A stretch of 59,223 bases of DNA from Cyanophora paradoxa CCMP329 (taxonomy: Eukaryota > Plantae > Glaucophyta): NCBI GenBank assembly GCA_004431415.1, contig QPMI01000213.1:1-59223 (forward strand), read 5' to 3'. The notes under the pieces were generated by a model, which searched no databases, was not told where the DNA came from, and worked only from the letters and a program-made list of their open reading frames with translations. A program made the translations under genes and the position numbers. Of the stretch, positions 209 to 25,073 are shown piece by piece; position 1 is the first letter of the stretch, and every line of letters begins with the position of its first letter.

Positions 209-221
209 GGCGCCATCTGCT
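209..221 (+). promoter_or_regulatory. Position of the primer-binding site (non-canonical, no TGG)
   Basis: Sequence immediately 3' of the LTR end is GGCGCCATCTGCT. Called by position only. Confidence 0.35.
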
Positions 222-814
222 CACGGAGCCAGAACCCGATCATCAGCGACCCGTCATCAGCAACCGACCAGCTCGGCGACCGCGGCTCAGCCGGCGCGCA
301 GGTAGACCTCAGCAGAGGTCGTGGGTCGCTTCTCGCGCCCCGCTGCGCCGCTCCGGGCTGATCCGCAGTTGGCGACCGAACATTCTGGAAAGAACCAGAA
401 CTTAGTCCTGCGGATCCAGGAACGCGCGCGAATACCGAGGGATCCCCGTCCCGATCGGATCGTCGCCGTTTCCTGAGAGCTGCGTGCGAGCCCGTGGGAT
501 CATTCCTGATCGTCGCTAGTCACTCGCCGCGACGCCAGCCTCTCCGGCTGTTGCGATCGTGCTGGACAAGACGAAGAGCGATCGGATCGACGGCTGAGGG
601 TGCGCGCCGAGCTGTCTCCGGAATCGCCGCAGCCGAGCTAGTGAGCTTGCTCGCCGCTGCTGTGGACCACGACGGCTCGGATCTCGAGCGAGGCACATTC
701 TCTCACGGAAAAGCGTGGCATTACGTCGCCGCTTGACCTGAGAATGTCCTCGGGGACCGGAGCCTCCGCGGAGTTTCGTCGTCCGGGCCGCGCACAGGCC
801 GTGGCGCCGCCGAC

Positions 815-2290
815 ATGGACTCTATGAGCGGATCAAATGTTTTGCAATGGATCCAGAGCCTGCGAAGCTGCCGCCGGCAGCGATCAGCGCACGGTTCAGG
901 ACCACCTCCGCCAGTTCGAGAGCTGCGCGAGCATGAGCAAGACTTGCTCAGTGTCTCGCCGACTGCACACATTGAAGTGCAGAAGCGAACTGGTGGGCTC
1001 TTCTCGGCACGCAGATCACGGCACCCGTGCGCCAGAAATCTCGCTGTTCCAGAGCGCGAGCAGATCGACACTCGCGAGCTCGAGAAGCTGAAGGCGTACC
1101 GGGCCGAGCGTGCGCGCACGAGCACGGCGGACCGCGAGACGTCGCGATCCTCGAGACGCTCGACGAGAAGATCGCGCAAGCCGAGAGGGCTTGCAGCGGA
1201 CCGCCTCACGGTCACGTACACCGCGATCAGGCGCCGTCTCGAAGATGACGCCGAGATGCGAACCCTGACCGTACAAGGCGCTCCTCGACCTGCCGCACGT
1301 GGGCGAGGCGCCGGAGGCGTTCTATCGCCGCGTCTCGACTTGAGCATCATCCCGGAGTGCCGCGAGGCCACGAGACACCGCTTATGGCACTCATGCGCCA
1401 CGCGGCCAGATGCTCAAGCGCCGCACTCGCAATCAGTGCCGCGACTTCGAAGACTCCGAGATTTCGGACACCGATCGCGGCACATGATGACGAACTTCTC
1501 CACGGCTCGAAGATCTATGACGAGCTGTCCGCAGAGATCGCGGACCGCGAGATCACGGGACCTCTGCGGTCATCGACCTGGTAACCAAGCGCACCAATGA
1601 ACTGGGCGCCTGGACGTCGATATCTCCAAAGTCCCCGCTCGGCCCTAGTGCTGGGCTCGCGCGGGACGCCGCTGCAGGCGCCCACGGCTGCTCGCGCACG
1701 CCGCAGAGCGCGCCGCCGATCACGCACACGCCAGCTGTCCCCGTCGTCCCCTCGCGCTCGAACGCGGCGCCGGCGCGGGCACGCGCATCATGCTCGCGAC
1801 GACGGTGTCGGAAGCCAGATCGCAGAGCTTGAGGCAAACGCGTACGGGTGGGACGCGGACGACGCCGAGATCAGAACGCCGAGGTCATCTCGTTCCTGCA
1901 GCTCATTGCTCGGACGAGCCCTCGTCGTAGTCGCGCCTCTACCCGTCGGCGTCCGCACCGCCGCCCCGCCTTGACGACCCGTCTATCAGCAGAAGATCAA
2001 AGACTTCCTGAAGGCCGGGTCTCCCGAGAAGCCCCGCGGCCGTGCCACTTGCGGCGAGTCGCACTACTCGTTTGAGTGCCGACCAACCCGCGGCCTCTGC
2101 CCGATGGTCGCAATCAACCCGCCAAGCGCCGCGGGCCAACGGCGAGGCACCGGTGACCCGAAGCGCCGGTTCTACCCGCGCCGCAGGGTGGGAACGGCCG
2201 CTCGAGCCCCCGCCCCAGCAAGCTGCAGGGCCCCGGGCGTGCTACAACTGCGGCAAAACCGGCCACCTGGCCGCGTCCTGCCCGCCCAGG
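815..2290 (+). CDS. gag: Gag-like region ending in a CCHC zinc knuckle (frameshifted in this sequence)
   Basis: CYNCGKTGHLAASC (C-x2-C-x4-H-x4-C) at 2240-2281, preceded by helical/coiled-coil-like peptides spread over several frames. Start codon uncertain. Confidence 0.7.
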
Positions 2291-5200
2291 CGCAGACGCT
2301 CGAGCGCGGTCCGCCGCGCGCTTGCAGAACACGCCGCCGCCGCTGCAGCCCCGCCCGTGCGCCCGCGACCCGGCGCCCTGGCTGACCCAACGCCTTCACG
2401 ATCGCGCGCGCCATGCTCGACAGGCTGCCCGAAGCGGCGCCGCCGGCCCGTCGCGACTGCACTGCTTCCCGCGCCGACCGGCGCCACGGGTCGGGCCCAC
2501 GGCGGCCCCGGCGCCCGCCGAGCTTGGCAAGGAAAAGCACGTGTACCGTGTGCGCATCGTGCGCAGCGACGAGGCGTTGGTCGACGATACCTTCCGAGCC
2601 TTCACCGCAGCGGCCGCGCGCACGCCGCCGCGCTGCAGGACCCCGGGACGGCCCCCTCTCAACGCGGTCGCCGCAGCCGCCACCGCTTTCGCGATCGCAG
2701 TAGTGCAGCTGTCCGGGGAAAAGCCGCCCAGACCTGTGCCCCACGGGAGCCGAGAGGCCGGCCCCTGCGAGGCGCAGGACCTGTTGCCGACCCGCCCGGA
2801 GTCGGCCTGGACGAGGGGGAGAAGAAGGTCGCGTTCGACGCAGTGGACGCCGCCCTCGAGGAAATCGCACTCCTCTTGGCGGCCGCCCCGGACCCAACGA
2901 GGTCGAGGGCGCTGACGCAGCAGCGAAGGTCCCGCGCCGACCCGTGCCGACTTCTTTCCCGCCGACTCGCCGCGGCATCGTGGACGCCGCCCTTGATGAG
3001 GTCGCACTCCTCTTGGCGCCCCGGACCCAACGGAGGTCGAGGGCGCTGACGCAGAAGCGAAGGGTCCCGAGCCCGCGAGGAGCTCGCTCCCACCAAGTCG
3101 TCCCCGAGACCGCCGCCGCCGAGGCTCCGGCGGACCCCGCCGCCGCGTGGGCTGCTGCTGGGTACTCCTCGGGGCCGAGACGGTAGCGAGCTCGAGGTGA
3201 CCGACGACGGCGCCTCCCTCGCCGACGAGGACGCGACCGTAGCGTCTAAGGAGACCTGCGCCTCAACCGCGCTCGCCTCCTCAGCGCTAGCCCGGCCTAG
3301 ACCTCACTCACTTCGGAGCCGTTGAGTTAGAGCCGGTGAAGGGCCGCGAGCACGAGCTGGGCCCGTTCCTCTCTGGAACGTGGACGCGCACAAGCTGAAG
3401 GGCGCCGCGTCGGTCCCGCTCGACCGCGCGCGTTCCTGTACCCAGCGCCGTGCGAGACTCACTGCGCTGCACTGTGAGCGAGGGGCTGATCGAGGTCCGG
3501 GACGAGCAGTGGTATGCCACTGCGTTCCGCTGCCCGGCCCGCACCGCCAGACGCTCTCCTTCTTGCTTGCGGCGTTCTCTCAGCGCTCGCCACCGAGAGC
3601 ACGTACCTCGGCTCGCGGACCCTCCCCACTGCGTTCCTGCAGATGCTGGGGCATGACCCGCTGTCCCAGGACACGCTGGCTCACGCCTGGCCGACGCACT
3701 ATTATGAAATCATGAGCCTCACGCACCAGGCCTCTCGCGTCGCCGCGAAGTGGCCGGGGCCACGCGTGGCCGCACGCCGAGGGCCTCACGCCGAGGGTCG
3801 CCCCGCAGTCGAGCCCGACGCCCACAAGCTTACGAAGCTTGGGACGAGTGCGTCGCTACCGCCGGCTGGCTGGAGCCATACCGCCGCCATGGAGCATTGG
3901 CCAGCACTCGCCCGTGGCGGCCTCTCTCGAGCCGCACGAGATGACAGTGTCGGGCCGCCGCCAGCTAATCGAGCTGAGCGAGCTGTTGCCGGCACAGGAC
4001 CGCCTCGCTTGCGTGCGCCTCGACTGTTGCGGCTATTTCCTGCACCGCGTCGACTACGGTGCCCGGGCACCGCCGGCGCCGTCGAGAAGATCCTCGGCCG
4101 CTTCTTTAAGTTCGCCGAGCCGCTCATGGTGGACGCGCGGGTCGACGCCTATGGCTTCGCCCTGCTGGCCCTCGAGCACGCGATCCAGTGGAAGACCGTG
4201 GCTTGCATCGGCGCCGCGCCGTCCCCACGACGCCCACAAGAGCGCCGTTGCCCTGGCCGACGGGAACCCTCTTGTCCCTCGACTCGGAGTTCACGGAAGC
4301 CGTTCACTCGCTTGCCGTCCTGGCTGCCTCCGTTGAGGTTCCGATCCCGGGGCGGGCACGTCTCCGCTCGGATCGGGACGCCGAGGGATGGCTGCGGCAG
4401 CGCTCGCGGAGCGTCTGACTGCGTACCGCGACGGCCGTGCCCCCGCCTTCCCGGTCGTGAGCGAGGGCGAGTCCCGCACGGTTGAACGCGTTCCGGTGGA
4501 GCCCCGCGTCGCCGCCGCCCGCGTTCTGCACCTCCGGGACCTGCACTTGTGCGACACCTGGCTGCACTGGCCGCGCCTGCACGGGCAGAGCCTGGCACGT
4601 GGAGGGTCGGCCGCGTGCGCCGATCACGCGCACCACGCAGTTGCCCCTGCACGGCACGACGCGAGGCGGGCAGCTGCCCACGATCGTGCCTGAGGAGCTC
4701 TACGTGCTGAGCCAGCTCGGCCCGCGCCCGCCGCTCACCGCCCTGTGCGATGCAGCCTGGGCCCGCACGGTTCCCGGATCCGCCGGGCCGCGGAGCTGCT
4801 CCGGTACATCGAGGGGGCCAAGGCGGGCGACCGGGCCCACCTCGTCATTCTATTCCGTAGGCTGCTGAAGAAGCGGGCCGGTTTCAATGACGAGCTGTCA
4901 AGGACATGATCGCGCTCGTGGAGAAGTGGCGCACGGATGCAGGCAGCCGCACCCCCACTCCTCTCCACGACCTGCCCACCACGCCGAAGCCGGCGTCGGA
5001 CACGACGGCGCCTACACGGCGAAGGCCGTCAGCGCGACGATCAAGGAGGCTAAGGCCTGCCTGCCGCCGCGCCCGCCTGTGAAGGCGCTCTCGCCGAGGG
5101 ACCGCCAGCGCCGGCGCGGCCGGCGCCCGTTCCTGTCCCGCCGCCTGCACGACGGCGAAGCTCGTGACCTTGCACGCCGCGGCAACATGGCCGCCGCTTG

Positions 5201-8200
5201 CGAGCCGATGGCGCCGCGGCCACCGCCGCTCCGACGCCGCCGCCACTGAGCCCGCGCCTGTCGAGCCTCGCCTGAGCGAGCGCTACTCGACGTCGCGCGC
5301 GCGACGCGCCGGCTCCCCGGCAGGCCGCCCGTCGCGGCGAGCGTGGCCGCGGGGACGGGTCGTGCGCGTCAGCACCCGTGGGCGCGGCTCGCAGGGCCAC
5401 GAACCCGCAGCGCCCGCCGTGGGCAGGCTGAGGGGAAGACGCCGAGATGGGCGAGCGGGCGACGGCGATGAGGCGCCCGAGGAAGCGCCGCCGCCGCCGC
5501 CGCTCGGCTATCGATGAGAACCTGAGCCAGCGGCCCTGTACGAGGCTATGGGCGTGATGAGCGGCGTCCTCGCAGTGCCGGGGTGCCCGCCTCGGCTCTG
5601 TGAGGGGAAACAGATCACCGAGTGGCCCATGACGGCCCGGTCTGATCTCGCCCACCGCTGGAGCATCCCCTTCGACGCACTGAAGGGCACGTTCGAGGAC
5701 CTGCGGTCCCGCACCTCAAGGCGTTTCTCGCCAGCGAGAGGAGCACGCCAATCAGAACCGCCTGGATGGGCCGCCCGTGCCGCACGAGGAGCCGCCGGAG
5801 GGCCGCGTCGCGCTCAGAGCCGATCGCACCGTTCGCCTCGCGCGGCTCAACGCGGCCGCGTTCGAGCTCTTCATGATCGCGCTGGGGCTCGTGGCCCCGT
5901 CACGCCCACTCCCACGATCTCCCGTTCCACCTGCATGAGTGGACGGAGCAGCAGTTGGAGCACTTCCTGACTCTGCGTTGGACGATCCCTGCCACGCGCC
6001 TGCCGCGGTGGACGCACGGGGCCGCTTCAACCCGAGCGCGGCCGTCATCCCGCCGCAGTGGGCCCAGTACCTCTTGCGTGCTCACACCATGTTCCGCGCC
6101 GAGGCGGTTGGGACCACCGTTCCTCCGCGGAACGCGCCGGCCTGGAGTTCCCGTACGGGGTTCGCTGGCTGCGCCGCCACCTGCAGCTAGGGACGCGCGC
6201 GCAGGAGGAAGCCGCCGAGAGCGACCCGCACAGGGGCTTGGCCCTGACCGCCCAGCGCGCGGCCTTCCAGGAGAAGGTCTTGCATGCCCTCGAGCGTCAC
6301 GCTGCACGGCAGTCGTTCACGTTCGACGATGCGCTTGTGGGCACCTACATCGCCGATGAGCCTGAGCCCCGCCTCGAGCCGCTCGACATTGACCATGTCG
6401 AGAGCGAAGAGGAAGAGGGCGAGAAGGAAGAGGCGCCGGCTGCCATCCCTGCGGCGGCGCACAGGCCGTTCGAGCCGCACAAGGACTGGCAGCCGCGGCC
6501 GCTGTTCTCGTTGGCGGACCCGACGTACGCCAACGATCACAAGCTCTTGCGCGAGTACATGGACCGGAAACACGCGTTTTTCCGGCCCCTGGAATGCTAT
6601 GAGCCAGGGTTCACTGAATGGGCAACGCTGCCCGCGATCAGCTACCCCTTGCGCTGGCAGCACGCCGGCGACGTTGACGAGTACAACGTCGACGTGCTCA
6701 CGCTGCAGGACCAGCACATGGGCGAGCTGTGCTCAACTATGCTCAAGCGCGTCGGCCCCGCCGCGCGCGGCATAGTGAACTGGTTCTCGCTCGTAGGCCC
6801 GCCTCAGCGGCCGTTCGACGAGGATCCGGAGCTCTTCGACCTGCAGGGCTTGCATTCCCGCACGCCGCCTGCGGCGTCAGCTTGGATATCGTGCAGTACC
6901 TCGCGGTCGGGACCCGTACCGCACAGTCTGCCGTCCGACGTACACGGGCGCCTGGGATCTCACGCACGAGGGCACAGCCCACGCACCCGTGTGTTCGACC
7001 CTGGCCAGGTCTCGCGGGTGCTGTATACCGCCTTCTTCCACGAAGGCGGCGGCGCGCGGAACGCCCGCCGCCGTACATGCCGCACCCCGAGCGCCCCACC
7101 CTGCACACCTCAGTCTTGGGCGGTAACATCGCCGACCCGAACGAGGAGGACGCCAGGACGCCGTTCGCGACCCGCTTCGCGCGCGACGTCGCCGTGCTGG
7201 CCCTGCTGCGCCCGCTCGCCGACAAGCGCGTCGAGAACGTTGAGGGTCGCCTGCAGACGCGGCGCATCTACGCGCCCCGCCTCGTGGCAGGCACGGCCAC
7301 GCCCGCGCGAACGCTGCCTGCGACAAGGACGTCGCAGGGGCGCGCCGCACCAGCGCGAGAACAAGAAGCTGTGGCTCGCAGTGACGGTCGCCCAGCTTGC
7401 GAGCCAGCCCAAGAAGAGCCACGCGAACCCGCGGCTCGTCACCGCGTTCGGTTACGAGCTGCCGCCTTTCCCGAACTCACCTCCGGGGACGTGCCCTTGG
7501 GCGCCGATCCCGGCGGAAGAGGAAATCCTCGCGACGGCCATCGTTTTACGCTGGCCTGGCACGCGCGCTTCTTCCAGCGTCACGCGCCGGGCAAGCACCT
7601 CCGCAGCCAGCACTGGGCTGATGACTTTCTGTCGGCTGCGGCCATGGACGTCGAGTCGGAACGCCCGGCTGACTACGTCCCCGAGATCGCTCGGGCGGTC
7701 GCCGATCACATGGATGACTTCAACAAGGTGTTGAACTCGTTCCGCTGCGTGGTGCCGGACGGTCTGATGGTGTTCATTCACGAGGCCTTCCTGACTAAGC
7801 CGACGGCCAAGCCGGACCGCGGGTCCGACGTCTTGCCTCAGGGCAAGAAGGTCTTCGACGCGGACGCGAGGCCGACGTACCCGGACGGTCATCCCACGCT
7901 TGCGTGGAAGTTTGGCCCGAACAATGCGGTCGTGCCGGACCACGAGGGTCGTGCGGCGATCTGTGGGCGGATCCTGCTCGCGATGCTGCAGGGCTTCCAG
8001 TATCCCGCATCCCGCTGCTCGCGCAGCGGGTGGACAACTGTGCGCCCCTGAACGCCGCCATGCCCAGAACGTGCCGAGGTCTTCAGGGCCCTCTTGCGCA
8101 CTATGACGAGGGATGAGTGCGCCGACTCGGATGCCCGCGCGCTGGCGGACGGCATCCGCGCGTACCTCACAAACATGCCGCACGGTCTCGGGTACCAGCG

Positions 8201-11200
8201 TCTTGAGCTCGGCTCGCCCCCGATGGCCGGCGCCGAGGACGCGTGGCCCGCCGGCGATGACCTTGGCGCCGGGGGCAAGAGTGGGATACAGCGCCACCTT
8301 GAGGCCGCCCGCGCCGCCGAGGAGCTGGAGAACTGTCCCGGGAACTTCCCGCTGGGGCTCATCTTTACCGATGAGGCTATACCCTGCGGCCTCAGTTCGA
8401 GACGATGCTCCGTTCGCTCTACGCCGATCTGAATGTCGCGATCCGCCTCGCGCGCCCGATCGACTGGGAGACGGACGACCCCGTGCTCCCCGACTGGGAC
8501 GTTGAGGCTCTGCGCCCGGCGCTGATGTGGGACGCGGTCCAGAACAAGGGCGCCGCGCCCTCGGCCCGGCGCAGCCTGACTGCGACGGCGGCTGTCGATA
8601 AGGAGGCCGAAAGCCTTCTGGTTCGCACGCCGTACCAGCCGATCTACGAAGGAGCGGTCCGCGCGACGTGGGCGGGCGTGCGGTTCCAGCCGCCCTCAAC
8701 CATCGTCGGCGGGCTCGCGGACGACCCCGCCGAGGCGGCGCCATCCGCCACCCCGTCGGCGCCCGCGCCGGCGCAGGCCGCTGCGCAGACCGCCGCGCCG
8801 CCGACGGCGCCGCAGCAGGCGCGGCCCCGGCGCAACGCGGGCCAGGCCGTTGGCCGAGGCGGCCGCGGGCAGGGTCACCAGCGGGGCGGCCGGCACCGCG
8901 GTCGCGACGGCCGAGGCCACCGTGACCGTGGCGGCGACCGCGGCGGTGCCAGGCGCAACCCGCACAACCCGCTGTCGACCCGAACGACCCGTTCGGGCTG
9001 GATGCGTTCCTCGCGCGGCAGCAGGGGTATGACCCCAAGACCATGCGCGTAACCGTCTCGGACGGGAAGGTGAAGGTCGAGCGGATCGCCGAGAGCGCTC
9101 CGCCAGACCAAGCCCCGCCGGCTGAGACTCCCTCCCGGACCTTGATGCCGCCGCCCAGCTCGAGCCGCCAGGCCGAGGCAAGCTCGAGCCGCAGGGACGA
9201 CACGGCCAGTCGCGCGTCGCAGGCCCGCCGGACCCCTGAGCGGGCCTCGTCTCAGCGCCGCTCGCGCACACCCGAGCCGCGCCGAGCCCCGTCCAGTCGC
9301 CGCTCTCGCACCCCAGACAGGCGCGAGACGCGGGGCCCCTCCACGCGCCGCGAGCGCTCCCCGGAGCCCCACCGGCAATCCGGGCGCCGCCGCCGTCCCG
9401 CCGTTCGTTGGAACGCCGCGATCGCGAGGGCTCCCGACGCCCTTCGCCGGACCGCCGGGACCGCGAGGCCTCCCGCCGCCGCTCCCCGGACCGCCGTGAT
9501 CGCTCGCCGCCGCGCCGCGACCGCAGCCCGCCGAGCCGACGGTCCACGGCTCGCGACACTCGCGACAGGCGGAGCCCTCGCCGAGGCTCGCGGGAACGCC
9601 GCCGGAGCCGAACACCGTCCCGCTCTAGCTCCCGCTCGCGCTCGCGCGATCGGAGCCCGAGCCGGAGCCCCCGCCATGACGATAAGCGGCGCAAAAGCTC
9701 GAAGAAGGGCTCGCGCGACCGCGCCTCGCCGCGAGACCGCCGCAGCCCTCGCAGCAGCCAGTCCTCTCGCCGCCCGCCGGACCCGCCGCGCGGCGCCGTA
9801 GACGCTGCGTACAAGCGGCACGAGAACGACGCCCGCCTGCGAGGCTGCCCGCCCACATTGCGCGAGCTCTTCGACATGGTCTGGAAGGCGCAGTACGCTG
9901 AGATGCCAGACTCGCTCTCGGCGTCCGCGCGAGCTGAGCAGGCCACCGCGCTGGTCCTGATCAAGCTCCAGAACCAGATGGACGCTCAGTCCGCGTCGTC
10001 CTCGGCCCGCGCCGCCGCGCCACCATCGGGTGGGCAGCCGCCGACGGGCGGACGCAACGAGCGCCAGCAGCCCTTTCTAGAGGGGCCTGAGGGGCAGAGC
10101 GAGGCCGGTCCGCAGTCGGCGGCGCCGTCCAAGCCTGCGGAGGGTCGCGCCTCCATCTCTCAGGCCCAGGAGCGGTCATCGCGTGCGAGCCAGGCCGAGC
10201 CGCCGCGCGCAGACCAGTCGACGCCGGAGCAGCCGCGCGCCTCAGTGGCCGCGCCGCGCGCCTCCGCCGCCACGACTTTCAACCCCAGGCTGACGTCCCA
10301 GCAGGGGCCTCCTGCAGTTTGTGCGCGAGTGCTCGAGCTGCCGCGACGTGAAGATCCGGGGCCAAGGGGTCACGGAATTGGGGCTTTGGCTTCAAACAGT
10401 CGAGCGCCAGATCCGCACCGCCGCTAGCCACGCCGAGACGCGCGCCAAGCCCGGCGGCGCTCAGAAGGTCTCAGACGAAGCCTTCGCCCAGGCAAAGCAG
10501 GCCGCTCGGCGGGCCCTGGAAGACGTCTGCCGCGCCCTCCGGGCCGGCATCGATATGCAGATCAGCCTCTCCGCTGGGGAGACGGGCATGATGATCTCGC
10601 TCCTCCCAGACGGGCCCCGTGCCGATCTCGAGGCTCTGCGGGCCACGCTCGATCGCACCAAAGACTGGCGAGCCTTGCTTGAGCGCGAGCGCCAGCACGA
10701 GGCTCGCGTGGCAATGCAGGCCGCGGCAAAAGCCAACCCAAAGCCCTTCTTCGCGGTATACACCGTCGCAGAAGCGTCGTCACCCCGCGGGCACGAGGCC
10801 CGCGCGCCCTGTGACCTTCCCGCCCACTTGCATACGCCGGCGTCGGTCCGGGCCGCTGTGCCGGTGCCGGCGGACGAGAAGTACATCTCGATCCGCCGCG
10901 TCCAGACGGTCGTCCACGAGCCGCCCGCTCAAACAGTCGCGCCGCCGGCGCCAGCCGCGCCGCCCGCCCCGGCCCCACCAAAGAGCCGCGAGCCTGCGCC
11001 GGCCTGGGCCCGCCGCCTGCTGCACAAGCTCGGGCCGCGCTCGACCGTGCTGGTCTTCAACTGGCTGTCGAACCCCGCGCAAATGCTGCAGGTCGATCCA
11101 AAGACCCTGGAGCCCGCCTTACGCGCGGTGCATCAGGCGATCATGGACCGCTACGGCATCTCGATGCGCAAAACGGGCTACAAGGCCCCGCCACGGCCGA

Positions 11201-11690
11201 CTCGCGCGTGGTTCTCGGGTTCAGCGCCGACAGCGGCGTTCGCCCCGCAGAACGCGCTCGAGGCCGCCGCGATCATTTACCCCGAGGGCCTGACCTCCGA
11301 CGAGGAAGCTCTCATGCCCGCGGGCCACGCCCTGGGCTCCAAAAACCGCCCGTCCCTCGCCGTGCCCCGCCCGGCAGAGGAGACGCCGCTGGGAACGCGC
11401 GCCGGCTATGACCCGCCCAGCGACGAGTTGCTCTACGCCAACCGCCACGGCCCGGGCCCGCGCAAGCGGACCAAGCCCTCGCCGTTGGCCGACCAGGCAG
11501 AGCAGCGCCGAGTCGCCGAGCGAGCCGCGGCTCGCCAGTCCCGGCCCCCATCCCCAACCGCAAGCGCAACGGACCTGTCGGGTCCACCCGCGCCGCCGGA
11601 ACCAGAATTCCACGTCCGCCGCGCCCGACCTAGCTTCCCGCGCGACCGGGCCCTGGAATTCTTCCGGCCAAAGACACTGCACATTCACGG
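2290..11690 (+). CDS. Large uncharacterised polyprotein segment (~3000 aa when stitched) between nucleocapsid and protease
   Basis: Protein-like segments in overlapping + strand ORFs (3514-4485, 5548-5970, 6058-7734, 6729-8051, 8094-8432, 8405-9052, 9043-9801, 9408-10427, 10321-11895) can be chained by single-base shifts. The last one runs in frame into the protease. Confidence 0.65.
2843..3069 (+). repeat. Two-copy internal coding duplication (~90 bp unit)
   Basis: 2843-2934 and 2980-3069 both encode VDAAL(E/D)E(I/V)ALLLA...RSRALTQ. Confidence 0.85.
8850..9780 (+). other. RGG box followed by an Arg/Ser-rich (RS, RSP) low-complexity domain in the polyprotein
   Basis: GRGGRGQGHQRGGRHRGRDGRGHRDRGGDRGG, then RRSRTP / RRSPDRRDRSPPRRDRSPPS / RSRTPSRSSSRSRSRDRSPSRSP. 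Confidence 0.8.
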
Positions 11691-12020
11691 CAGCATTGCT
11701 ATGCGCCTGCCGAACGGCCGCTCCGGCGCTGAACGGCCCGCTCGCATTGTTGTCGACACGGGCGCCCAGGGAACTGTAGTTCCCCAGGAAGTCCTCGACC
11801 GCCTGCCGCCCGACGAAGTCAATTACGTCGAGGGCCACACGATAGTCCGCGGTTTCATGGACCGGACAAAATTCGTTGTCGCCGCGCCGACGTAGTCTTC
11901 GTTCTGGGCTCGCTCCGCTTCTGCCGCCGCGTCTTCGTCGTCCCGCGCGGCGCCATGGGCGTTGAGCCGGACATTCTGCTCGGCCTGGACGCGATCCAGG
12001 CCGTCCACGGCCAGATCGAC
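11690..12020 (+). CDS. Retropepsin-type aspartic protease domain
   Basis: IVVDTGAQGTVV (DTG at 11755-11763) and downstream DILLGLDAI (~11970-11996, reached by a 1-bp shift near 11880). Confidence 0.88.
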
Positions 12021-12929
12021 ACGACGCTGTCCGGGTGGTGCCTCCGGGCCCGTGACCACCTGCACCGCGAAGTCGTCGTCCCTTTTCGGCTCCGGACCAG
12101 CTTGGGATCCTGGTCCGAGTCCTGGGACCAGTAAAGCTCCCCGTCGGAGAGGCCCTCGTCCCATGCACGCTCAATGGGCAGGGCCCGGCAACGCGTGAGT
12201 TGCCGCACCTCTACGTCGAGCCGTCGCCGGAGTCCCCGCAAGCCTTGGGCGTACTCTGCCCTTACCAGCTGCATAATCACCCGGGAGACAAAATGTTTCA
12301 CGTGCGGTTGTGCAATCCTGGCCGGCAGCCGGTAACCCTGCCGCTAGGATCGGTAGTAGCGGTCGCTTCGGCGGTCGCCCTACCGCCTGGTGATTTTGAG
12401 TACGAACCTGAGCAAATGCCTTGTAGTGCGAGTGCATTGACAGACCTCTTGATTCGCCGGCTGCGACGCCGCCCCGCGCACCGCCCTACGACGTCGACGA
12501 TATAGTCGTCACGTTTGGCGAGCTGCCCTTCGACACAGCCGACCGGCCGTTGCAGGACCTTGATGCTATGAGCATCATTAGCCTCGACGACGATGCTATG
12601 AGCACGTCGTCACGAAGCGCGTCCCCAACGCCGGCCCCGATCACAGGCCCCTCGGTCGACGAGTTCGTCGCCGCAGTCGAGGCAGTGTCCGTCCCCAGAG
12701 ACGCCACCCTGCGCTCGACCTTCCCCGGTCTCTCCGAAAAAGCGGAGCGCGACTTGCTCGATGCAGTCCGCGCCATGCGCGGCGACGTTACGGTCCGCAA
12801 GGCCGCACCGGTCGCCGACGCCGAGGCCCCACCCCAGAGTGTGGTCACAGCCTCGCTTTCGGCCCGGCCCGATGCCCCACCCCTACGACTGCAGCACCCG
12901 ACGCGAAGCCCGCTGAGGCACCGCGGCCG

Positions 12930-14400
12930 GTGCCTAATGCAGAGGAGGAGTGGCAAGAGCTGCTGAAGAAGATTCCTGAGCTCGGCTCTCACCCGTCAAT
13001 CACGACGGCGCAGAAAGCCGAACTTCACGCGCTCCTGCGGCGCTACAAGGATGTCTTCGCAGACAAGGTCGAGGCCAAAGAGGGCACCAGCAACCTGCTC
13101 TATTACGAGCACGTGATCAAACTCACGACTCGCCTTCCGGTGTTCACGCCTCCGCGGCGTATGAACCCGCACGCCGAGGAACACGCCCGCAAGGAAATTC
13201 AGAAACTCCTTGAGCTTGGGCTGATCGAGCCCTCCCAAGCGGCATATGGCTCGCCGGTAGTGCTGGCCCCCAAAAAGGACGGCACTTGGCGTTTCTGTGT
13301 CGACTATCGGAGGCTGAATCAGATCACCGAGCGGGACGTGTTTCCCCTACCCCGCATAGACGACCAGCTCGAGCGCCTCCGCGGCTCGATGGTCTTCTCG
13401 ACTGCTGACGCGACTGCCGGCTTCTGGCAGCTGCCTCTGCACCCCGGCTCCCGAGCCTACACTGCATTTGTGGTCCCCTGGGGTCACTTTCAGTGGAAGG
13501 TTACGCCGTTTGGGGTCACGAACGGGCCCGCGGCATTCTCCCGCGCGATCACTGCGATCCTGGCCCCTTGCTGACCACCTGCGTCGTCGCGTACATCGAC
13601 GATATCACGGTCTTCTCACCGTCCATCGATCAGCACCTTCTAGACTTGAAGGCGCTCTTCGAGACGATCTCTAAGGCGAACCTGCGCCTGAAGCCGTCGA
13701 AGTGCCGCTTCTGCGTGCCTGAAATCGACCTTCTCGGCCACCGCATCTCCGCCGAAGGGATCCGCCAGGACCCTGCGAAGACCAAGGTGATCACGGACTG
13801 GCAGACGCCGAAGAACGCGGACGAGCTCCGCTCGTTCCTCGGCCTCGCCGGCTACTACCGCCGCTTTGTCGAGAACTTCTCCAAAGTGGTGCACGCCATG
13901 CAGCGCCTTCTATTGAAGGACGCCGTCTGGAGTTGGCCAGAGGACGGCCCCGCCGACCGCGCCTTTAAGGAGCTGAAAGAACTCCTGGGCCGCGATATTA
14001 TATTGCGGTTCCCGGACTTCTCGAAGCCCTTCATTCTCCAGACGGACGCCAGCACCTACGCTATCGGCGCAATTCTGAGCCAGGCCGACGACAAAGGCGT
14101 CGAGCGGCCGCTCGCGTTCATCAGCCGCACGCTGCTGCCGGCCGAGATGAACTACTCCGCTACGGAGCTGGAGTGCCTCGCAGTAGTCTGGGCCATTAAG
14201 TATTGGCGCCACTATCTGCTGGGCGGCCCCCAGTTCCTGGTGCGGACCGACCACCACGCCCTCCAGTGGCTGAAGACGCTGGACCCGACGACGGGCCGCC
14301 TCGGTCGCTGGTCCCTGCTCTTGCAGGCCTACGACTTTGAGATCGTCTACCGCCCTGGCAAGCAGAACGGGGGTCCCGACGCGTGCTCGCGTCTCCCTAA
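12930..14400 (+). CDS. pol: Reverse transcriptase + RNase H (pol); one 1-bp deletion in the C-run at 13564-13567
   Basis: RT motifs KKDGTWRFCVDYRRLN, FPLPRID, GFWQ, PFGVTNGPAAF, YIDD (13592-13603), FLGLAGYYRRF. RNase H motifs LQTDAS, NYSATELECLA, TDH, DACSR. Confidence 0.97.
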
Positions 14401-15799
14401 GGACCACCCCGTCTGGCAGCCAGGCGGTGCAGACGGTTCCTCGTCCAAGCCCGCGGCCTACAAGGGCGCCGAAGGCTTCGGCATCCCGCAACATGCTGTA
14501 GGGGCTGAGCCTGAGGATCCCGACGTCCCGCTGGGCATCTTTAGGATGCAGCTGGGCCCGACCGAGCGGGCCCTGCGCCAGCTCGCCAACTCCGCCGGCT
14601 TCCGCGCGGAAGCCCCAGCCGAGGGTGGCCGAGCCGCTAGACGCCGAGCGCCCCGGGCGGCGCCTGCGAGCGCCCCCTCTTCCCCGCCGGGCCGCTCCTC
14701 TTATGCAGAGGAGGAGTCGCGGCCCCCTGTGCCAGCCAGTGCTCCTGAGGCCGAGCCCGACGCCGGCGCCCCTGAAGCGCCCGCGCCCGAGCCTGAGGGT
14801 GAGGCTGGCGGTGCTGCGGAAACCGATTCCGACGCCGAGCCCCCGCCGCCAGAGCGCGCGCCGCGACGCCTGCCCCGCGAGCTCGCCAAGCTTGCTGCGT
14901 CGGCTGGGTTCGCTGAGGCCAAGGCCTCCGCCTCGGCTACTGACGCCGCCACGCGCAAGCGAGCGCGGGCCGCCCCAGAGCGCTTCGCGCCTCCCGCGCC
15001 AGAGTCGGTCTCGCCGCCCCGAAACGACGAGAGCCGGGCCCGGCGCCCGCTGTCGAGGAGCGCGAGGCTCCCTCGGACGCGGAGATGCCCGACGCCCCTG
15101 AGGGCGACCTGGGCGCCCCGGCCGCGCTGCTAGAGGACGCTCACGCAGAGGCCGAGGCCTCGGGCGAGATCGATGACGAGTCGCTGCCGGAAGGGCCTGT
15201 CCCCTCCGACGCCTGCGACGCTGACGGCTTCCCCTCGCTCTTGCGGAGCGAGTCCCGAAGCGCTCGGAAACCGGGCCCCGTCGGTGGGGCGCCAAGGGAT
15301 TTGCCGAGCCGCGGCCCCTGCATCCCGACGCGCTCTTCCCTCGCGGCCCCGCCTTGAGGCGGCAGCCTCGAGATGAGTACAACACGCGCCACTGGCGCTC
15401 CCCGGTCGACCCCTCGGATCGGCCGGTGCCGATTCATATTGAGTGGGAGCCGGAGGACCCTGAGGGCGAGCCGCCTCCCGGGCCTCCGCGCCGACGCTCG
15501 CTCTCCCCGGAGACTGCTCGCCACCAGATCCGCGTTCGGCCGGTCCCCCGGACCCCAAGCCAGCGCCGCGGGCTCGAGGTCGCCCCTCTGCCCGCGGGCA
15601 GGCTTCCGACGACGCCGCCCCGCTCGAGCCTGAGACGGTCGCCGCCGAGGCCGCTGCCCCGCAGCGGTGGGTAGAACTCGACCCTAGAGGCCGGGACGTT
15701 CGCCCGCCGTGCAAGCCGGTCTTCGTGGATACCGTCCTCGACGCGTGGGCCTGCGGACCCTCGCCAGCCGTCGATGGGGCGCTCCCGACGCGCTGCGCC

Positions 15800-17384
15800 G
15801 TATGTTCCCGCCCGAGAAGCGCAAGCGTCTGCTCGCCGCTCAGAAGGAGGATTCCTTCTGCAAGAAGCTTCTCGCCTTCCACGCAGAGGGCGAGAATCCA
15901 ACTGTCTGTACCCGCGGCTCGAGGCGCGACGCAGATCCCTGCTCGCCCAGCTGCGCTCACTGCCTGCGGGCCAAGGAGCGCTTTGCACGCCTGGCCGGCG
16001 AGTTCAGCCTGGCCGACGACGGCGTCATCGAGCGCAACCCCTTGGTCCCTGCCGGCCGGTTCCTACCCGTCTTGCCGGACGCTTGGATCGACAGGGTGCT
16101 CTACGCCTATCACGAGGGCTGGGCCCATCGAGGCGCGCCCGTGATAGCCCGTCGGATCGCCCTGCGGTTCTGGTGGCCTGGCATGTACGCCTCCATCGCT
16201 CGCTTTGTGCGGTCGTGCCCGCACTGTCAGTTCGCGAAGGCCGCGAAGCCCCGCCGTACCGCCATTCAGGTGATACAGCCTTCGGGCAAGGGAGACCTGT
16301 GGCAGGTGGATATCTTCCACTTGGATATGCACGAAGACGGTTCGCGATACATCATCGCGTACGTCGACGCATACACCAAGTTCTGCTATATCTACCCGCT
16401 CTCCCGTATCTCCGGCGAGGCCTTGCTCGCCACCGCGATCGACTTCTATACGCACGAGGGCGTGCCCGCGCGCATCCTGACGGACCGCGGGTCCCAACTC
16501 GTTGGGGGCGCGTGGAACGCGTTCTTCAAGGAGAAGGGTACCCGGTTCGTGCACGCGGCCGCCTACCACCACGCCTCGAACGGCGGCGCCGAGCGCCTGG
16601 GCGGAGTCTACAAGACTCTCGCTTACGCCATGTGCCGTGAGCACAAGCGGCCGCTCTCTGACTGGCCTCTTTACAACGCCGATATCGTTCTCGCGTTGCG
16701 GACCACCGTGCACTCCGCCACCGGGTTCTCCCCGATGGTCTTGCACCGCGGTTCTGAAGTGCACCTGCCCTGCGAAGTGCGCTTCGGAGCCGGCGTCCGC
16801 TTCGTGAACCCCGACCACACGCACCCGGCTGATTACCTTCTCGCGATGACGCGAGCTGCCGCGAGCGCCGACGCTGCCTCGCGCGAGTACCGTCGGTTCT
16901 ATCGGAACCGCATGGTTGCTCGCACCGGCAACCCGCCTCATCGTCGCCGCTTTGAGGTTGGCGACAAGGTATTGTGCTGGATGGGCGAACACAACAAAGG
17001 GCTGTACAATTCGTGGGTCGGGCCCTACACTGTGACTGGTGTTAACCCTGGCGGTTACACCTACACGGTCAAGGGGTCGGCTAAGCCCTACTCCGCCAAG
17101 GACGATGCCCGTACCCGTCCTCTGCGTGAGACTGTTGCCCACATCGACTGCATGCTTCCGTTCCGCACGCGTCTCTCCGAGTCTCAAGCCCGTCCCCGCG
17201 TTGGTCGGCCTCGGAAGACTGCTGTGAACGCCGACGAGCCGGCGATCGACCCCGCACTCGCGGACTCGCCCGCTCAAGAACAAAATCCACCTCTCGCCCC
17301 TGACGTCGACGCCGAGGGCCCGAGCGGGCTGCCGAGGGCGACGAGGTTGAGATGGATGACGCGATTTTGGTCGACGACCTGTGA
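15800..17384 (+). CDS. Integrase (HHCC zinc finger, D,D35E core, GPY/F domain, no chromodomain)
   Basis: YHEGWAHRG...CPHC; WQVDIF / LTDRG / NGGAER with exactly 35 residues between the second D and the E; FEVGDKVL...WVGPYTV. Probable acidic tail (EGDEVEMDDAILVDDL) in a shifted frame ending at TGA 17382-17384. Confidence 0.95.
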
Positions 17385-18062
17385 GAAGCTCGTCCCATTG
17401 CTGTTCCCTTTGCGATCGCTGTGCTTGCGCCGTGGGGCAGATTTCTTTGCCCGCTTTGCCTCAGCCCTGGCTTCCGAGGTGGGACGTGGGTTGGCTGGTG
17501 GCCAATCACGGGGCGCCATCTGGGCCTTTCGTTCCATTTTCTGGGATCTGGGCCCGTCGCTCGTGGAGAGTGGCTGGGTGTAGGCCTCCCGGGTGCCTGC
17601 GGGTCCGTGAGGGGCTCGAGGTTGCTGGCTGGGGGTGCACTCAGTCGTGCCCTATCCTTTCGTTGGGCCTGATGGGCGGCCCGGATACCTCCTCGCTGGT
17701 TTCTTCCCGAGGCGGTGAAACTTCCCATCCGTGCCACTCTCCTTCGGCTCTCGCCGTTGGAGCGAGTTTGGGCCAGCTTTTGGGGGGTTTCGAGTTCTAT
17801 GCTTTTCCATCTTTCGAGCTTGGCCTGGGGTTGCCTAGGTACATGCACTATGCTGGTATCGGCTCCTATTTCGGTCGCGAGCTATGCTACCTGGCATATC
17901 TGGTTGCTGACGACGGACATTCTACTTCGAGAGGAGTTCACTCGCCGCCGCCCTGTCGCTGCCGTGGTTGGTGCACACCCCGGCGGTGGGGTGGACGCCC
18001 CGTCGAGCATGCAGACTCGACGTTCGGCTTGGCGCGGTCCGGTGCGAGGACGCACCGTATGC

Positions 18063-18074
18063 AGAGTGAGGAGT
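18063..18074 (+). promoter_or_regulatory. Polypurine tract
   Basis: AGAGTGAGGAGT lies directly before TGTCG, the inverted complement of the LTR end CGACA. Confidence 0.6.
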
Positions 18075-18330
18075 TGTCGCGTGCCGCGATTCCCTCGGAT
18101 TAGGCTAGCCGGCAGTCTATGCGTAGCCGCTAGCCCTAGTCTAGTGCTATCGAGCAGCTAGCTCTAGCACTCTCTGTATTCTGACTTAGCGCCGGGCGCG
18201 ACTCCGTTTGGGGGTACGCGATCCCTGGACGGGTACACTTGTGAATAGACCACTTGTGCTCCCAGCTACAGCCCCAGCCCGTGCGTGACCGCACGGACGC
18301 TGCACCGGGTGGGAATCCTCTCATCCGACA
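18075..18330 (+). repeat. 3' LTR (~256 bp, TGTCG...CGACA)
   Basis: 5-bp terminal inverted repeat with TG...CA ends; 18121-18330 matches 1-208. The left boundary is inferred from the PPT and inverted terminus. Confidence 0.88.
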
Positions 18331-18401: not shown

Positions 18402-19136
18402 TTAAAGCCATACTCGTCGTTTATATACTGTGGGGGCAACACCTTTGTCGACCTCTGCTTTGGTAGCACCAGGTTCAATGGTGCCCTTCTGGGTTTTCGT
18501 CTTCATCTCATCAACTGCCTGCTCATCAATTTGAGTCTCTTTCTTACCAATGAATTGCTTATCTGGGAGACCAGTAATTCCCATTCTATACACCTCCTTT
18601 CGCAGCATCTCCTTCAATTTCGCTCTCTCTTTCTTCTCAGAGACATACTGTTCAAGAGCACTGGATTTCGCTTCCAGATCTTTCAGTTTCGCAGTCATTT
18701 CGTCCCATTGGGCTTTGGGAATTCGGTGGATATTCTGTGTAGGTGCGACCTTGTAGGTCACCTCACCAGCCATGGATTGAATTACCTTGTCTGATTCCTT
18801 GGAGACACCTTCACCTTTGCGAGCAAGTGAGAGATCTTGGAGACCCAGTCCTTTGTCATCAGCAGCACCAATAATTCGACGAGCACCTTCACCAACTGCC
18901 TTCATCTTAGAGGTTTCGGGCGAAATATTGAGTTGATCACTGGTGGATGTCTGGGGCGCTTTATCATCTGGTGATTCTTCGTAAGCAGCATTGAGGGGAT
19001 CTTCTTGTTGCTGTGATGCTTTAACTTCATTGACACCATTGAATTTCATGGGCTCTGTGTTAATAGAACCGGTTCCAGAGGATGCAGAATATGACATAGC
19101 ACCAGCAGGAACACCAACTTTGCGTTTGGAAGGCAT
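18402..19136 (-). CDS. Viral hypothetical protein, 244 aa (charged, central coiled coil, basic termini; possible core/cement protein)
   Basis: Long ATG ORF in AT-rich DNA, co-oriented and 28 bp downstream of the ATPase. Confidence 0.8.
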   Translation of the reverse strand: MPSKRKVGVPAGAMSYSASSGTGSINTEPMKFNGVNEVKASQQQEDPLNAAYEESPDDKAPQTSTSDQLNISPETSKMKAVGEGARRIIGAADDKGLGLQDLSLARKGEGVSKESDKVIQSMAGEVTYKVAPTQNIHRIPKAQWDEMTAKLKDLEAKSSALEQYVSEKKERAKLKEMLRKEVYRMGITGLPDKQFIGKKETQIDEQAVDEMKTKTQKGTIEPGATKAEVDKGVAPTVYKRRVWL

Positions 19137-19164
19137 TGTATATTTATTAGAAGCAGAGATTATT

Positions 19165-21383: not shown

Positions 21384-21437
21384 GATTATCTCTTTTATTA
21401 TACTGCAACATAAAAAATTCACCAATGATCCTTGATT

Positions 21438-22448
21438 TTACGCAAAATTCGCAATAACCGGATAAGATGGATGTGTTTCCGCCATTCTCCTCTTGAAGTA
21501 TTCGTACACAGGATCACCAGCAGGTTCATCACCATATCGAATTTCGAAGGTGAGGTGGACAGGTTGACCCTCGAAATCAATTGGTTCATTAACTGCATTC
21601 ACAATATCAACCGAAAATGTGGAAAGTCCCAGATTCTTGTTATAGTATTTATAAATCGGATGGGCTTCTGTCGAATTATAAACGACATGCTCACCATAAT
21701 CTTTATCTGGAACAACGATTTTGTGGAAATATCCAGTGAGGAGACCATCACCACATTGAACCAGATCACCCAACTCCTTTACTCTCACAAACAGAACACT
21801 ATCCCTGGTCTTTTCAGGTTCAAATGAAGATATGATACCATGCACCATCGACCCAGTAAAGATACCATCAGTCAGAGTATTATAAACTTGTGATTGGATT
21901 GGGGTGTTACCATATCTCCCAGGATCAAGACCAAGCAGTCGAGCAGAACTCAAAAACCTCTGAATCTGCGCCTGGGTTGGGTTTATTGCAGTTGAGAAAG
22001 CCAGGTAAAACGGTATGGTGGAATGGAATATTACTCGTTTCAGTGTATCATCCCATTTACAGCGAATTGCTACTGGTGGCTCTCTCAATGCAAGTTTGGA
22101 GTTAATTACATTCACCAGTTGTTGGTGGTTTTGAATGGGTGTGCTGCGACTTATCACAATGTGTTTCCATGATTCATAATCAGCAGCAGGTCGATCAGTT
22201 GGAATACCAGTGCTTCCTGCACCAGAATAATATTCAGACCAATAAAGGTAGATTGCATTATCAATTGTCACATCTCCTACTTTGGTTTCACCACTCACCA
22301 TGGGAATGCTGTTATAAAATTCTGCTGAAACCAGTCTTACTGCTCTCACAAATTCATAGGTGCTGGGGAGGCGAGCAATAAAACTCGAAGTAGGTCCATC
22401 TCCCGAAATTGTATTGAAAGAGCTCACTTCGATGTAATCCACAGGCAT
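21438..22448 (-). CDS. Minor capsid protein (penton, single jelly-roll with insertion), paralogue 1
   Basis: N-terminal YIEVSS...SSFIARLP..YEFVRAVRLVSAEFYNS and C-terminal LSTFSVDIVN...PIDFEG..VHLTFEI, the pattern typical of PLV/NCLDV pentons. Confidence 0.82.
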   Translation of the reverse strand: MPVDYIEVSSFNTISGDGPTSSFIARLPSTYEFVRAVRLVSAEFYNSIPMVSGETKVGDVTIDNAIYLYWSEYYSGAGSTGIPTDRPAADYESWKHIVISRSTPIQNHQQLVNVINSKLALREPPVAIRCKWDDTLKRVIFHSTIPFYLAFSTAINPTQAQIQRFLSSARLLGLDPGRYGNTPIQSQVYNTLTDGIFTGSMVHGIISSFEPEKTRDSVLFVRVKELGDLVQCGDGLLTGYFHKIVVPDKDYGEHVVYNSTEAHPIYKYYNKNLGLSTFSVDIVNAVNEPIDFEGQPVHLTFEIRYGDEPAGDPVYEYFKRRMAETHPSYPVIANFA

Positions 22449-22476
22449 CTTCTTTTATCTATAAACATATATTAAA

Positions 22477-23408
22477 ATGATTCGGCTGGTCAATATAGAT
22501 AGCAGAGACCGATCAGATGGACAAATAGAAAACTCCTACAAAGTTTCACTCACAACCCCAGTGACCAAACCAAGAGAATGTCGAGTTTTGTATGCAGAGA
22601 TCCCCAACAGCATCTATAATTCCATTGGAACAGACCACCTTCTTGTCAGATTCTTCTACCAAGGCATCTCTGAAACCAAACAGGTCTTCCTTCTCCCAAG
22701 TGGTTATATTAATCAAGGGCATTTCGGGGTCACCAGTCCATATAATTATGGTCTGAATTTCACATTTACTGGGAGCAACAATCTCACATATGCATTCAAG
22801 GTCTACTACAATCCTACTTCCTACAAATTGGAGTTTTACAGTAATGTTCAATTCGAGATGGTAGCATCTACACAGAGATTGGGTAAACTTCTTGGGGTTA
22901 GTTCTGTGGAGTGGGTCGCTTCAATTGAGCAAACCTACGATTTCCCAGAGTCTGCAAGGTCTTTATATGCCCCGAGAATTTCCTCTATTTTGCAGGAATC
23001 CCAATCACCCCAAACCATCCCCAATGGGGAATCACATTCACAGGATATGAATTCGAGGCATCTCGCTTAAACTACAAGTTAGAAGCATCCAAGATGACAG
23101 ACATGAATGCAGAACAGTATTTATACATGCACATTAAAGAACTCTCCCCATTTGCTACAAACCACAATATTGTTCCAAGATCACAACCACAGAATCAAGG
23201 GGCGATTCTCAGATTGCAATTGAGTAAAGATATTGGACAGTATGTTTATCACAGTGGAGAGCACAGTGAATACATAAAAATAACCGATCGAAACCTTGTG
23301 ATTAGAGAGTTAACAGTTGAGTTTCGAGATTATTATGGTGATCTTGTAGATATGAATGGGATTGACAACTCATTCCAGTTGGAGTTCTTGGCTATTGGTA
23401 ATGATTAA
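22477..23408 (+). CDS. Minor capsid protein (penton) paralogue 2, ~310 aa, split by a 1-bp deletion in the C-run at 22970-22973
   Basis: N-terminal LVNIDSRDR...YAEIPNS and C-terminal YLYMHIKEL...LTVEFRDYYGDLVDMNGIDNSFQLEF. Adding one C joins 22477-23070 and 23094-23408 through an open frame (PENFLYFAGIP...LEASKMTD). Confidence 0.85.
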
Positions 23409-23658: not shown

Positions 23659-23864
23659 GTTTCCTTTACAGCATGATGGGAAATCGTTTGTCAATTTTTG
23701 GCGAAACGAGAGTATCTCATGAGATAGATGCTCGAATAACAGGTGTGTTTTCAGGGTTGGAGAAATCGGAGAAACATAGAGTATTGCGATTTCCGAGTTA
23801 GTTGACACTGAGAAATTCAGAATTTCAGATGGTCTTACTGAAAATGGTCAGATAATCGGGTGTG

Positions 23865-24300
23865 ATACCTATTTAATTGACTGTGACGCCTCTTTAATTG
23901 ACTGTGACGCCTGTGACGCCTGTGACGCCTACTTTCAAACTTTTTAAAATTTTCAAAAATGACAGACTTCTGAAAACAGCCGTCACAGCCGTCACAGGCG
24001 TCACACCCAATTAAAAATGGAATCTCTTTCTCTTACTGAGATTTTCGAAAATATATTCTTGTCTTACTGAAATCCGTCTTGTGACACCTCTGACACCTAC
24101 AAAACACTATCCATTAATCAACCTTTTTGAAAATGCGAAGTTGTCTTACTGGAAATGGTCTGCAATTTCGCTGTGACACCTAATTTAATTGAGTGTGACG
24201 CCTGTGACGCCTGTGACACCTACTTTCAAACTTTTTAAAATTTTCAAAAATGACAGACTTCTGAAAACAGGCGTCACAGCCGTCACAGGCGTCACAGACA
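23865..24300. repeat. Two cassettes of 3x TGTGACRCC + ~50 bp AT-rich spacer + 3x inverted copy
   Basis: Cassette A: 23903-23929 and 23979-24005. Cassette B: 24194-24220 and 24270-24296. Period 291 bp; the spacers are identical. Confidence 0.92.
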
Positions 24301-24417
24301 TTCCACCCCTCTTACTGACTTTCTCAAAAACAAAACTATCTCTTACTGAATATCATTTGAATACTACCTGTCACACTTGATCTCAATTATTCTGTTTTAT
24401 AGAACATATGCAATCTA

Positions 24418-24665
24418 ATCGATTGTTCAATTGGAGACCATGCAACTCTGTGACAAGTTTTAGGTGCAAAAATGTAAATCCGCAATCCATCGATTGTTTA
24501 ATTGGACGTGATGCAGTTCCGATATATTCCAATAGAAAATCCCGCAATATAATCGATTGTTTAATTGGAGATAATGCAACTCTGTGACAGTTTTTGGGTG
24601 CAAAAATGCAAATCAGCAATCTCATCGATTGTTCAATTGGACACAATGCAACTCTGTGACACTTT
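24418..24665. repeat. Four-copy tandem repeat (63-72 bp units) starting ATCGATTGTTYAATTGGA
   Basis: Copies start at 24418, 24489, 24552 and 24624; three contain ATGCAACTCTGTGACA. Confidence 0.9.
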
Positions 24666-24978
24666 TTGCGTTTTTCGATACAGAATGGGCGGTGGTCTAC
24701 TTCAATACAAGAGAGATATATCGAGTTTTTGCGAATTTATGCAATTTAATCGCGATTATATCGATCTTTAAGTAGTTTAATGCAAATTAATCGCAGATTT
24801 GTATGTAATCGACAAAGAACATAATCAATCGATATAAGATCAATTGATTCAATCGTAAATATGCATAAAGTTAAACGCGTTTTTCATTTTTAATACAAAG
24901 TTTGCATTAATTTATACAAAGTTTGCATAAAAAGTTAAAGAAATTAATCGATAAATACGTATTTTAGTATTAATTTTG

Positions 24979-25073
24979 ACACATATGTATAAACTTATTT
25001 AAATCCTGAGTGAATCGAGATCGCGAAGCGATCGAGATGAACGAGGGATTTAAATAAGTTTATACATATGTGT
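24979..25073 (+). repeat. 95-nt hairpin: 28-bp perfect stem, tandem G.A zone, GCGAAGC loop
   Basis: 24979-25006 is the exact reverse complement of 25046-25073; inner GATCGC-GAA-GCGATC at 25019-25033. Confidence 0.95.

Follow-up and report, generated by a model that had tools for sequence, protein, structure and literature searches.

A hairpin with tandem G.A pairs at the end of an endogenous Polinton-like virus of Cyanophora paradoxa

Here we examined a hairpin in a 59,223-nt stretch of Cyanophora paradoxa CCMP329 DNA (contig QPMI01000213.1, hereafter the window) and found that it is real and forms the very end of an integrated, multi-copy viral element. The hairpin carries three tandems of G.A mismatches between Watson-Crick pairs, a geometry that chance decay of a palindrome has no power to explain. 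We consider it somewhat probable that this structure is a fold-back 3' end cap, which would complete replication begun at an internal helicase origin.

Fold and position of the hairpin

A pair-by-pair check reproduced exactly the scheme given in a preliminary description made from the sequence alone, which had a 28-bp stem, three GA tandems and a GCGAAGC loop. The outer stem consists of 28 perfect pairs (24979-25006 with 25046-25073). It is followed by T.G, G.A, A.G, G-C, T-A, G.A, A.G, A-T, T-A, C-G, G.A and A.G, and the inner end has six Watson-Crick pairs and a GAA loop (25025-25027) within GCGAAGC. The GA tandems lie at 25008-9/25043-4, 25012-3/25039-40 and 25017-8/25034-5, with two and three Watson-Crick pairs between them. 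All six GA steps have a pyrimidine-GA-purine context (TGAG, TGAA, CGAG / CGAG, TGAA, CGAG), in which tandem sheared G.A pairs are reported in the available text of PMC10085684; GCGAAGC is described as resisting heat and nuclease in the accessible part of PMC13037366. Scanning the whole window for this geometry returned the hairpin site, a TAGA microsatellite at 57849, a weak single-tandem match at 4299, and nothing else.

Both strands fold well, with z-scores of -10.8 (+ strand) and -11.3 (- strand) and 0/200 shuffles as good. The ViennaRNA energies of the two strands are barely separated (-32.9 vs -30.8 kcal/mol). The size of the strand asymmetry is therefore a prediction from the literature and not from the energy calculation made here, while the arrangement of the mismatches predicts full zipping for one strand only. 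Strand-specific folding, as proposed earlier, is a sequence-based prediction that the mismatch pattern and the invariance of the core across copies support. The tandem arrangement had also been called unlikely by chance. When seven random substitutions were introduced into a perfect 46-bp palindrome, three tandems arose in 0/1,000,000 simulated decays and two tandems in 19/1,000,000.

In 4/4 runs, read depth stays in the thousands as far as the hairpin and is 40-104 immediately past it. The drop from thousands to ~104 occurs inside 10 bases of 25073 (in run X2 at ~25073), and in run X2 another copy passes into a different flank after 25074. Of the roles offered in the preliminary description, that of a terminal hairpin is borne out by this drop and by the passage of other copies into other flanks. 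The hairpin also sits where the AT-rich DNA ends, as had been noted, with GC of 0.35 across 23748-25073 vs 0.64 across 25074-59223. Repeat depth divided by flank depth is 72-101 in three runs, which would mean tens of elements only if depth equals copy number, and the contig tool warns that it does not.

The least credible of the readings we considered is that the palindrome acts in RNA, as a terminator or polyadenylation hairpin, or arose by accidental fold-back copying or faulty assembly. Tandem G.A pairs do form in RNA as well. Accidental annealing is named as an alternative for such ends in the available text of a preprint on Halocafeteria seosinensis (bioRxiv 10.64898/2026.07.28.741278), and the junction contig (25046-25360) carries just 28 element letters, under a 31-letter bridging rule. 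Against an RNA role, the closest element ORF ends at least 1.3 kb from the hairpin, and Rfam gave no family at gathering score for it (six weak matches, all below). Accidental copies and chimeras would be perfect palindromes, so that the imperfect pairing makes a fold-back chimera unlikely, and the simulated decays did not produce three tandems. The junction contig is present in 4/4 runs (four study codes, 2019 and 2024) with zero differences from the window. A second exact contig (24977-25036) joins the interior to the hairpin core; none of the contigs listed spans the whole hairpin. The fold-back artefact that the preliminary description had allowed for thus finds little room, and the one-strand G.A architecture argues against an accidental origin of this viral end.

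Table 1. Positions of the hairpin, the viral genes and the repeats in the window.
Feature	Position	Strand	Basis or remarks
LTR retrotransposon	1..18330	+	interrupts virus; LTR 1-208 matches 18121-18330 at 99%; RT, RNase H, rve
244-aa ORF	18402..19136	-	no Pfam match
A32-like packaging ATPase, 260 aa	19165..19947	-	PF04665 passes cut-off (E 2.5e-10)
Major capsid protein, double jelly roll, 457 aa	20010..21383	-	model and Foldseek
ORFs of 336 aa (-), 197 aa and 104 aa (+)	21438..23408	both	no Pfam match
Probable terminal inverted repeat	23748..25073	.	~1.3-1.4 kb; inner boundary within 23706-23750; other end beyond window
Converging TGTGAC(A/G)CC array, copy 1	23882..24005	.	around AT-rich spacer; origin-like
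Converging TGTGAC(A/G)CC array, copy 2	24172..24297	.	shares 97% identity with copy 1 over 113 nt
Four ATCGATTG-containing direct repeats	24410..24693	.	spacing 63-72; number differs among copies (back-joints)
Terminal hairpin	24979..25073	+	last 95 bases of element; + strand, 3'-terminal here, has G.A form
Outer stem 5' arm, 28 bp	24979..25006	+	pair-by-pair fold; major subfamily TGAAAAACGA for GTATAAACTT at 24987-24996
Hairpin core	25007..25045	+	T.G pair, three 5'-GA/GA tandems, six pairs, GAA loop in GCGAAGC
Outer stem 3' arm	25046..25073	+	stops at host junction; major subfamily ~five changes (counted, letters unseen)

The viral element, its terminal repeat and its copies

The block at 18331-25073 spans 6.7 kb, has a GC of 0.41 vs 0.64-0.69 in its surroundings and a depth tens-fold above the flank. 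We file it as an endogenous Polinton-like virus (PLV) from its capsid, ATPase and composition; the double-jelly-roll capsid and the A32 ATPase agree with the virus named in the preliminary description. The capsid model has a pLDDT of only 54 (32 for a single-sequence model) and matches the PBCV-1 capsid in Foldseek at E 1.2e-13, with virophage capsids lower, while a PDB sequence search with the capsid gave no match. Its nearest relative is another Cyanophora paradoxa protein at 59% identity. Protein searches returned one capsid relative by words, six profile matches (one apparently spurious) and one ATPase relative, all of them lacking surrounding DNA. Relatives of either protein were found neither in viral or metagenome contigs nor in GenBank phages. 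The 336-, 197- and 104-aa ORFs are possibly minor capsid proteins, judging by resemblance. The latter two (22477-23408) are 23 bases apart in different frames and are perhaps one broken gene.

Pfam gave no pPolB, rve integrase or protease for any ORF in 18331-25073. What remains of the virus, including replication and integration genes if present, would lie to the left of the window. The LTR retrotransposon is itself unusually long (>18 kb), with ~8 kb between its zinc-knuckle ORF (2042-3049) and its protease ORF (from 10321).

Depth about doubles from ~23706-23750, and loose ends occur before 23748 in 2/4 runs and before 23881 in 1/4. From the doubled depth and the loose ends, we infer a terminal inverted repeat closed by the hairpin. 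Both TGTGAC(A/G)CC modules within it lie 0.8-1.2 kb from the element tip. Such TGTGAC arrays resemble P4 iterons. A search with an 18-mer of the array returned 23 viral loci, ten of which carry arrays on each strand close to the match. All ten are directly after a helicase gene (nine VapE-like, one AAA_25), though six of the ten are related to one another (50-100% identical proteins). In these loci (L077, L080-L082, L088, L090, L091, L094, L095 and L097) the motif is near-identical to the viral repeat. The others comprise one beside DUF5906, four within collagen-coding repeats, one beside such a gene, and seven that are unassigned. Across the 23 loci there was no relative of the six window proteins tested, and one short GA-tandem hairpin only.

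By analogy with these loci, the arrays may act as helicase-linked origins, and the phage and eukaryotic-virus arrays may possibly share an origin type. Helicase-origin-like arrays in the repeat would imply internal initiation, with an end-completion problem. The strand-displacement or rolling replication put forward in the preliminary description gained no support; the repeat instead has arrays resembling helicase-gene-linked origins. For 156 glaucophyte elements, one supplement row of PMC12220804, whose column headings were matched by hand, gives 40 D5_N, 34 PIF1-like, 49 pPolB, 85 rve and 0 tyrosine recombinase. The accessible part of that supplement has no glaucophyte rows on repeats or target sites.

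Stem and core variation was read from run X2, using 8 of 51 contig records and 6 of 10 loose ends listed. The major subfamily (depth 5105), which also shows as loose ends at 24973, has five differences in the 5' arm, where it reads TGAAAAACGA in place of GTATAAACTT (letters seen). Its 3' arm appears to have about five differences with the first two adjacent, as complementary letters would imply, and the clipping of contigs at 25055 fits such letters. Positions 25008-25055 appear identical between the subfamilies, as read from low-depth 60-base contigs with one error each assumed. The GA core would then be invariant, with the outer stem rewritten in both arms of the major subfamily. T25007 is a branch point that holds 1038 of the 1999 window-type depth (1038:~960, or 52:48) and is probably a minority allele. 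A C at 25007 (letter unseen) would lengthen the stem to 29 bp and create a CGAG block; the split fits a C-G allele and, equally, a 50:50 flip/flop. One contig has another cap, GCGCGAAGCGCGAAGCG joined at 25043, that keeps the loop and the GA steps and differs in the spacers. Since the contig reveals just the 3' side of this cap, and an unrelated phage contig contains an identical string, the cap is a lead only.

At the right end, the strand with the 3' terminus is the G.A strand. Contigs joining the interior to a G.A-oriented core account for 6143 of the 8083 repeat depth (76%), and both ends must contribute to this figure, since 5105 alone exceeds the depth of the listed inner gene region alleles. 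The G.A strand thus appears to be 3'-terminal at both ends, and its share of at least ~76% of ends speaks against flip and flop being equally frequent. Like the stem compensation and the terminal repeat, this orientation is deduced from how long and deep the contigs are and how many mismatches they carry, for the most part in a single run.

Across 23504-24455, the same viral alleles have depths relative to the flank of 15.5 (X1), 28 (X2) and 34 (X9). A host repeat allele is without this ~two-fold difference between runs. GC bias or episomal copies are possible explanations for the viral alleles.

Proposed completion of the viral end

If the hairpin is a fold-back cap, a primase-helicase would load inside each terminal repeat, on its converging TGTGAC(A/G)CC arrays, and lagging-strand synthesis would leave the 3' end single-stranded, giving 3' overhangs on a linear genome. 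The GCGAAGC cap and the three sheared tandems would then snap the 3' end back so that T25073 pairs with A24979. T25073 would be extended inward, closing the end, and the cap may also protect the end of the free linear genome. The outer stem would afterwards be ordinary terminal duplex, in which changes would appear as a block in both arms, and the G.A core would be the selected part of the hairpin. During integration, a nick after 25073 would give a 3' end to be joined to host DNA, and repair would unfold the hairpin into a junction palindrome of single orientation. The terminal position, the depth drop, a geometry not produced by decay, the 6/6 sequence context and a core that appears constant while the stem differs all favor this mechanism. 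Further points in its favor are the resistant GCGAAGC cap, the predominant orientation, the helicase genes beside arrays in phages, the tie of palindromic ends to non-pPolB replication in Halocafeteria, and the D5_N and rve counts of the glaucophyte elements. Against it, the replication and integration genes of the element itself lie outside the window, free molecules closed by a hairpin were not seen, and 49/156 of the glaucophyte elements have pPolB, which would need no fold-back primer. In addition, an asymmetric resolution step or selection at integration must be assumed, since a closed-hairpin cycle normally yields both orientations.

On the last point, it is simpler to regard the hairpin as a landing site on a 3' overhang for a primase or terminal-protein complex, as at Streptomyces telomeres or RepB'/ssiA, with its own 3'-OH not serving as primer. 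A single orientation is then expected without extra assumptions, which fits the share of at least 76%. The polarity and G.A chemistry are as in Streptomyces 3' overhangs (PMC4513846, available text), primase and N4 polymerase use GNA mini-hairpins (PMC13037366, available text), and the element tip, ACACA, is a short repeat. However, a landing site explains less well why the terminal base itself is paired and why the stem hides the first 28 bases of template. There is also a single palindrome, not several, and block changes in both arms come more easily if one arm is copied from the other. Overall, we think a landing site unlikely. It is rather improbable that the hairpin serves excision and integration only, as a signal for strand-specific recognition or protection, with no replication role. 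The attC and IS608 ends are models for such a signal; here the hairpin abuts the host junction exactly, and G is likewise the first base of the three other flanks seen or inferred. The rve integrases act on duplex DNA ends, which counts against this reading, and the end-replication problem of an internal origin would stay unsolved. In the supplement row of PMC12220804, rve integrases are common among glaucophyte elements, in its favor, but 0/156 list a tyrosine recombinase.

A free genome with flip/flop hairpin ends that are inverted each round, as in parvoviruses or poxviruses, appears highly improbable. Parvovirus 3' hairpins and poxvirus telomeres are imperfect and self-priming and typically occur as flip and flop, with the MVM left end as an exception. 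The 52:48 branching of the window-type stem at 25007 would fit this arrangement, as would a contig in run X9 that ends at the matching place. However, the major subfamily is unbroken from the interior to the G.A core at depth 5105, and adding as much again for flop would pass the total repeat depth of 8083. The flop strand would also have T.C pairs. In contrast to parvoviruses and poxviruses, one orientation seems dominant in the Cyanophora virus, for which neither an HUH Rep nor a resolvase was seen.

Extending the fold-back cap to a whole PLV lineage is more tentative. Such a lineage would replicate as a linear plasmid without terminal proteins, using phage-type helicase origins within each terminal repeat and one-strand G.A hairpin telomeres, with an integrase joining the nicked 3' end; we regard this as possible but doubtful. 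If true, each junction would be an unfolded telomere of fixed orientation, and such ends would escape ordinary palindrome screens and may be common.

Comparison with known ends

Terminal palindromes with a proposed priming role have already been described for this virus group, a precedent absent from the preliminary description. In the available text of the Halocafeteria seosinensis preprint (bioRxiv 10.64898/2026.07.28.741278), terminal palindromes occur in endogenous virophages (subtypes 1, 2, 5, 6) as well as in subtype 4 of the PLVs and go with non-pPolB replication genes. Hairpin priming is proposed there and an accidental origin left open. The helicase-linked arrays of the Cyanophora repeat would point to a non-pPolB replication gene only indirectly. 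Like the Cyanophora hairpin, these ends are palindromes at the terminal-repeat tip of an integrated PLV-type virus, adjoining host DNA. However, G.A tandems, a GNA cap and strand polarity, all of which the Cyanophora hairpin has by sequence, go unmentioned in that text. The screen used there was for near-perfect palindromes (arm >=20, <=4 mismatches, gap <=10) and would also miss the Cyanophora hairpin, whose longest arm within those limits is 15. We did not find the one-strand G.A architecture in print, and no paper joining sheared pairs to virophage termini was found in a literature search of mostly open-access coverage, in which the Halocafeteria preprint was the one relevant item listed, although preprint figures or supplements may show the feature. 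The available text of PMC5737381 does not mention tandem GA or GNA, and the accessible parts of PMC8502044 and the Sissivirus preprint contain nothing on such ends.

Streptomyces telomeres also place the 3'-terminal strand in hairpins closed by sheared G.A pairs, and internal initiation leaves 3' overhangs there (PMC4513846, available text), as would be the case for the Cyanophora virus. The same text cites a likeness to parvoviruses. In Streptomyces, several packed palindromes fill the terminal ~100 nt and priming is by the Tap/Tpg proteins. In contrast, the Cyanophora end is one long hairpin whose pairing includes the last base. It belongs to an integrating virus of a eukaryote, and no terminal protein was seen in the window. 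RSF1010 ssiA and the N4 promoters share the GNA triloop cap and function on single-stranded DNA (PMC13037366, available text), but their stems are short and internal, whereas the Cyanophora hairpin is a genome end with a 46-pair arm.

A search for the GA-tandem geometry returned 72 viral loci, none with a long perfect stem plus three tandems, and the alternative-cap pattern returned three loci, none a clean fold. Unbroken GA-tandem hairpins are present in 9/75 pattern-selected phage loci, so the chemistry itself is common. The phage hairpins have the same tandem and GCGAAGC loop chemistry in unrelated sequence, but they are short (nine pairs plus three tandems), lack a long outer stem and lie mostly beside a terminase-like gene. 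In eight loci (L005, L020, L027, L029, L059, L061, L067 and L071), the hairpin is near position 1500 or its mirror, mostly followed by a G run, and just upstream of the terminase-like gene (Pfam-checked in L005 only); those of L005 and L071 have no Rfam match. At the 3' end of an NCLDV major capsid gene, the L018 locus (1466-1546) combines a long stem with GA steps and a GCGAAGC loop; it was rejected as a counterpart, as its inner pairing is broken. The exact hairpin core was absent from the viral and prokaryote contigs searched, and viral, metagenome, phage and prokaryote contigs yielded no end homologous to it in another host.

For the copying of ends in PLVs without a protein-primed polymerase, the preprint proposes hairpin priming, and the G.A end speaks against the alternative of accident. 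Since the stabilising mismatches sit on the 3'-terminal strand, it can be asked directly which strand and which base primes and whether there are one or two orientations. Cyanophora paradoxa offers many public DNA runs. A search rule that allows GA tandems and GNA loops could catch ends missed by standard screens.

The host side of the junction has features of its own. A further copy of the element has the first 8 flank bases (25074-25081, GGGCGCCC) and then resembles 25915 onward. That the flanks seen or inferred start with G may reflect a target preference or a terminal G. A very high-depth host repeat at 25945-26005 has a GC hairpin with a TTCG loop ~20 bases before CTAG, which to us is reminiscent of a Helitron-like 3' end.
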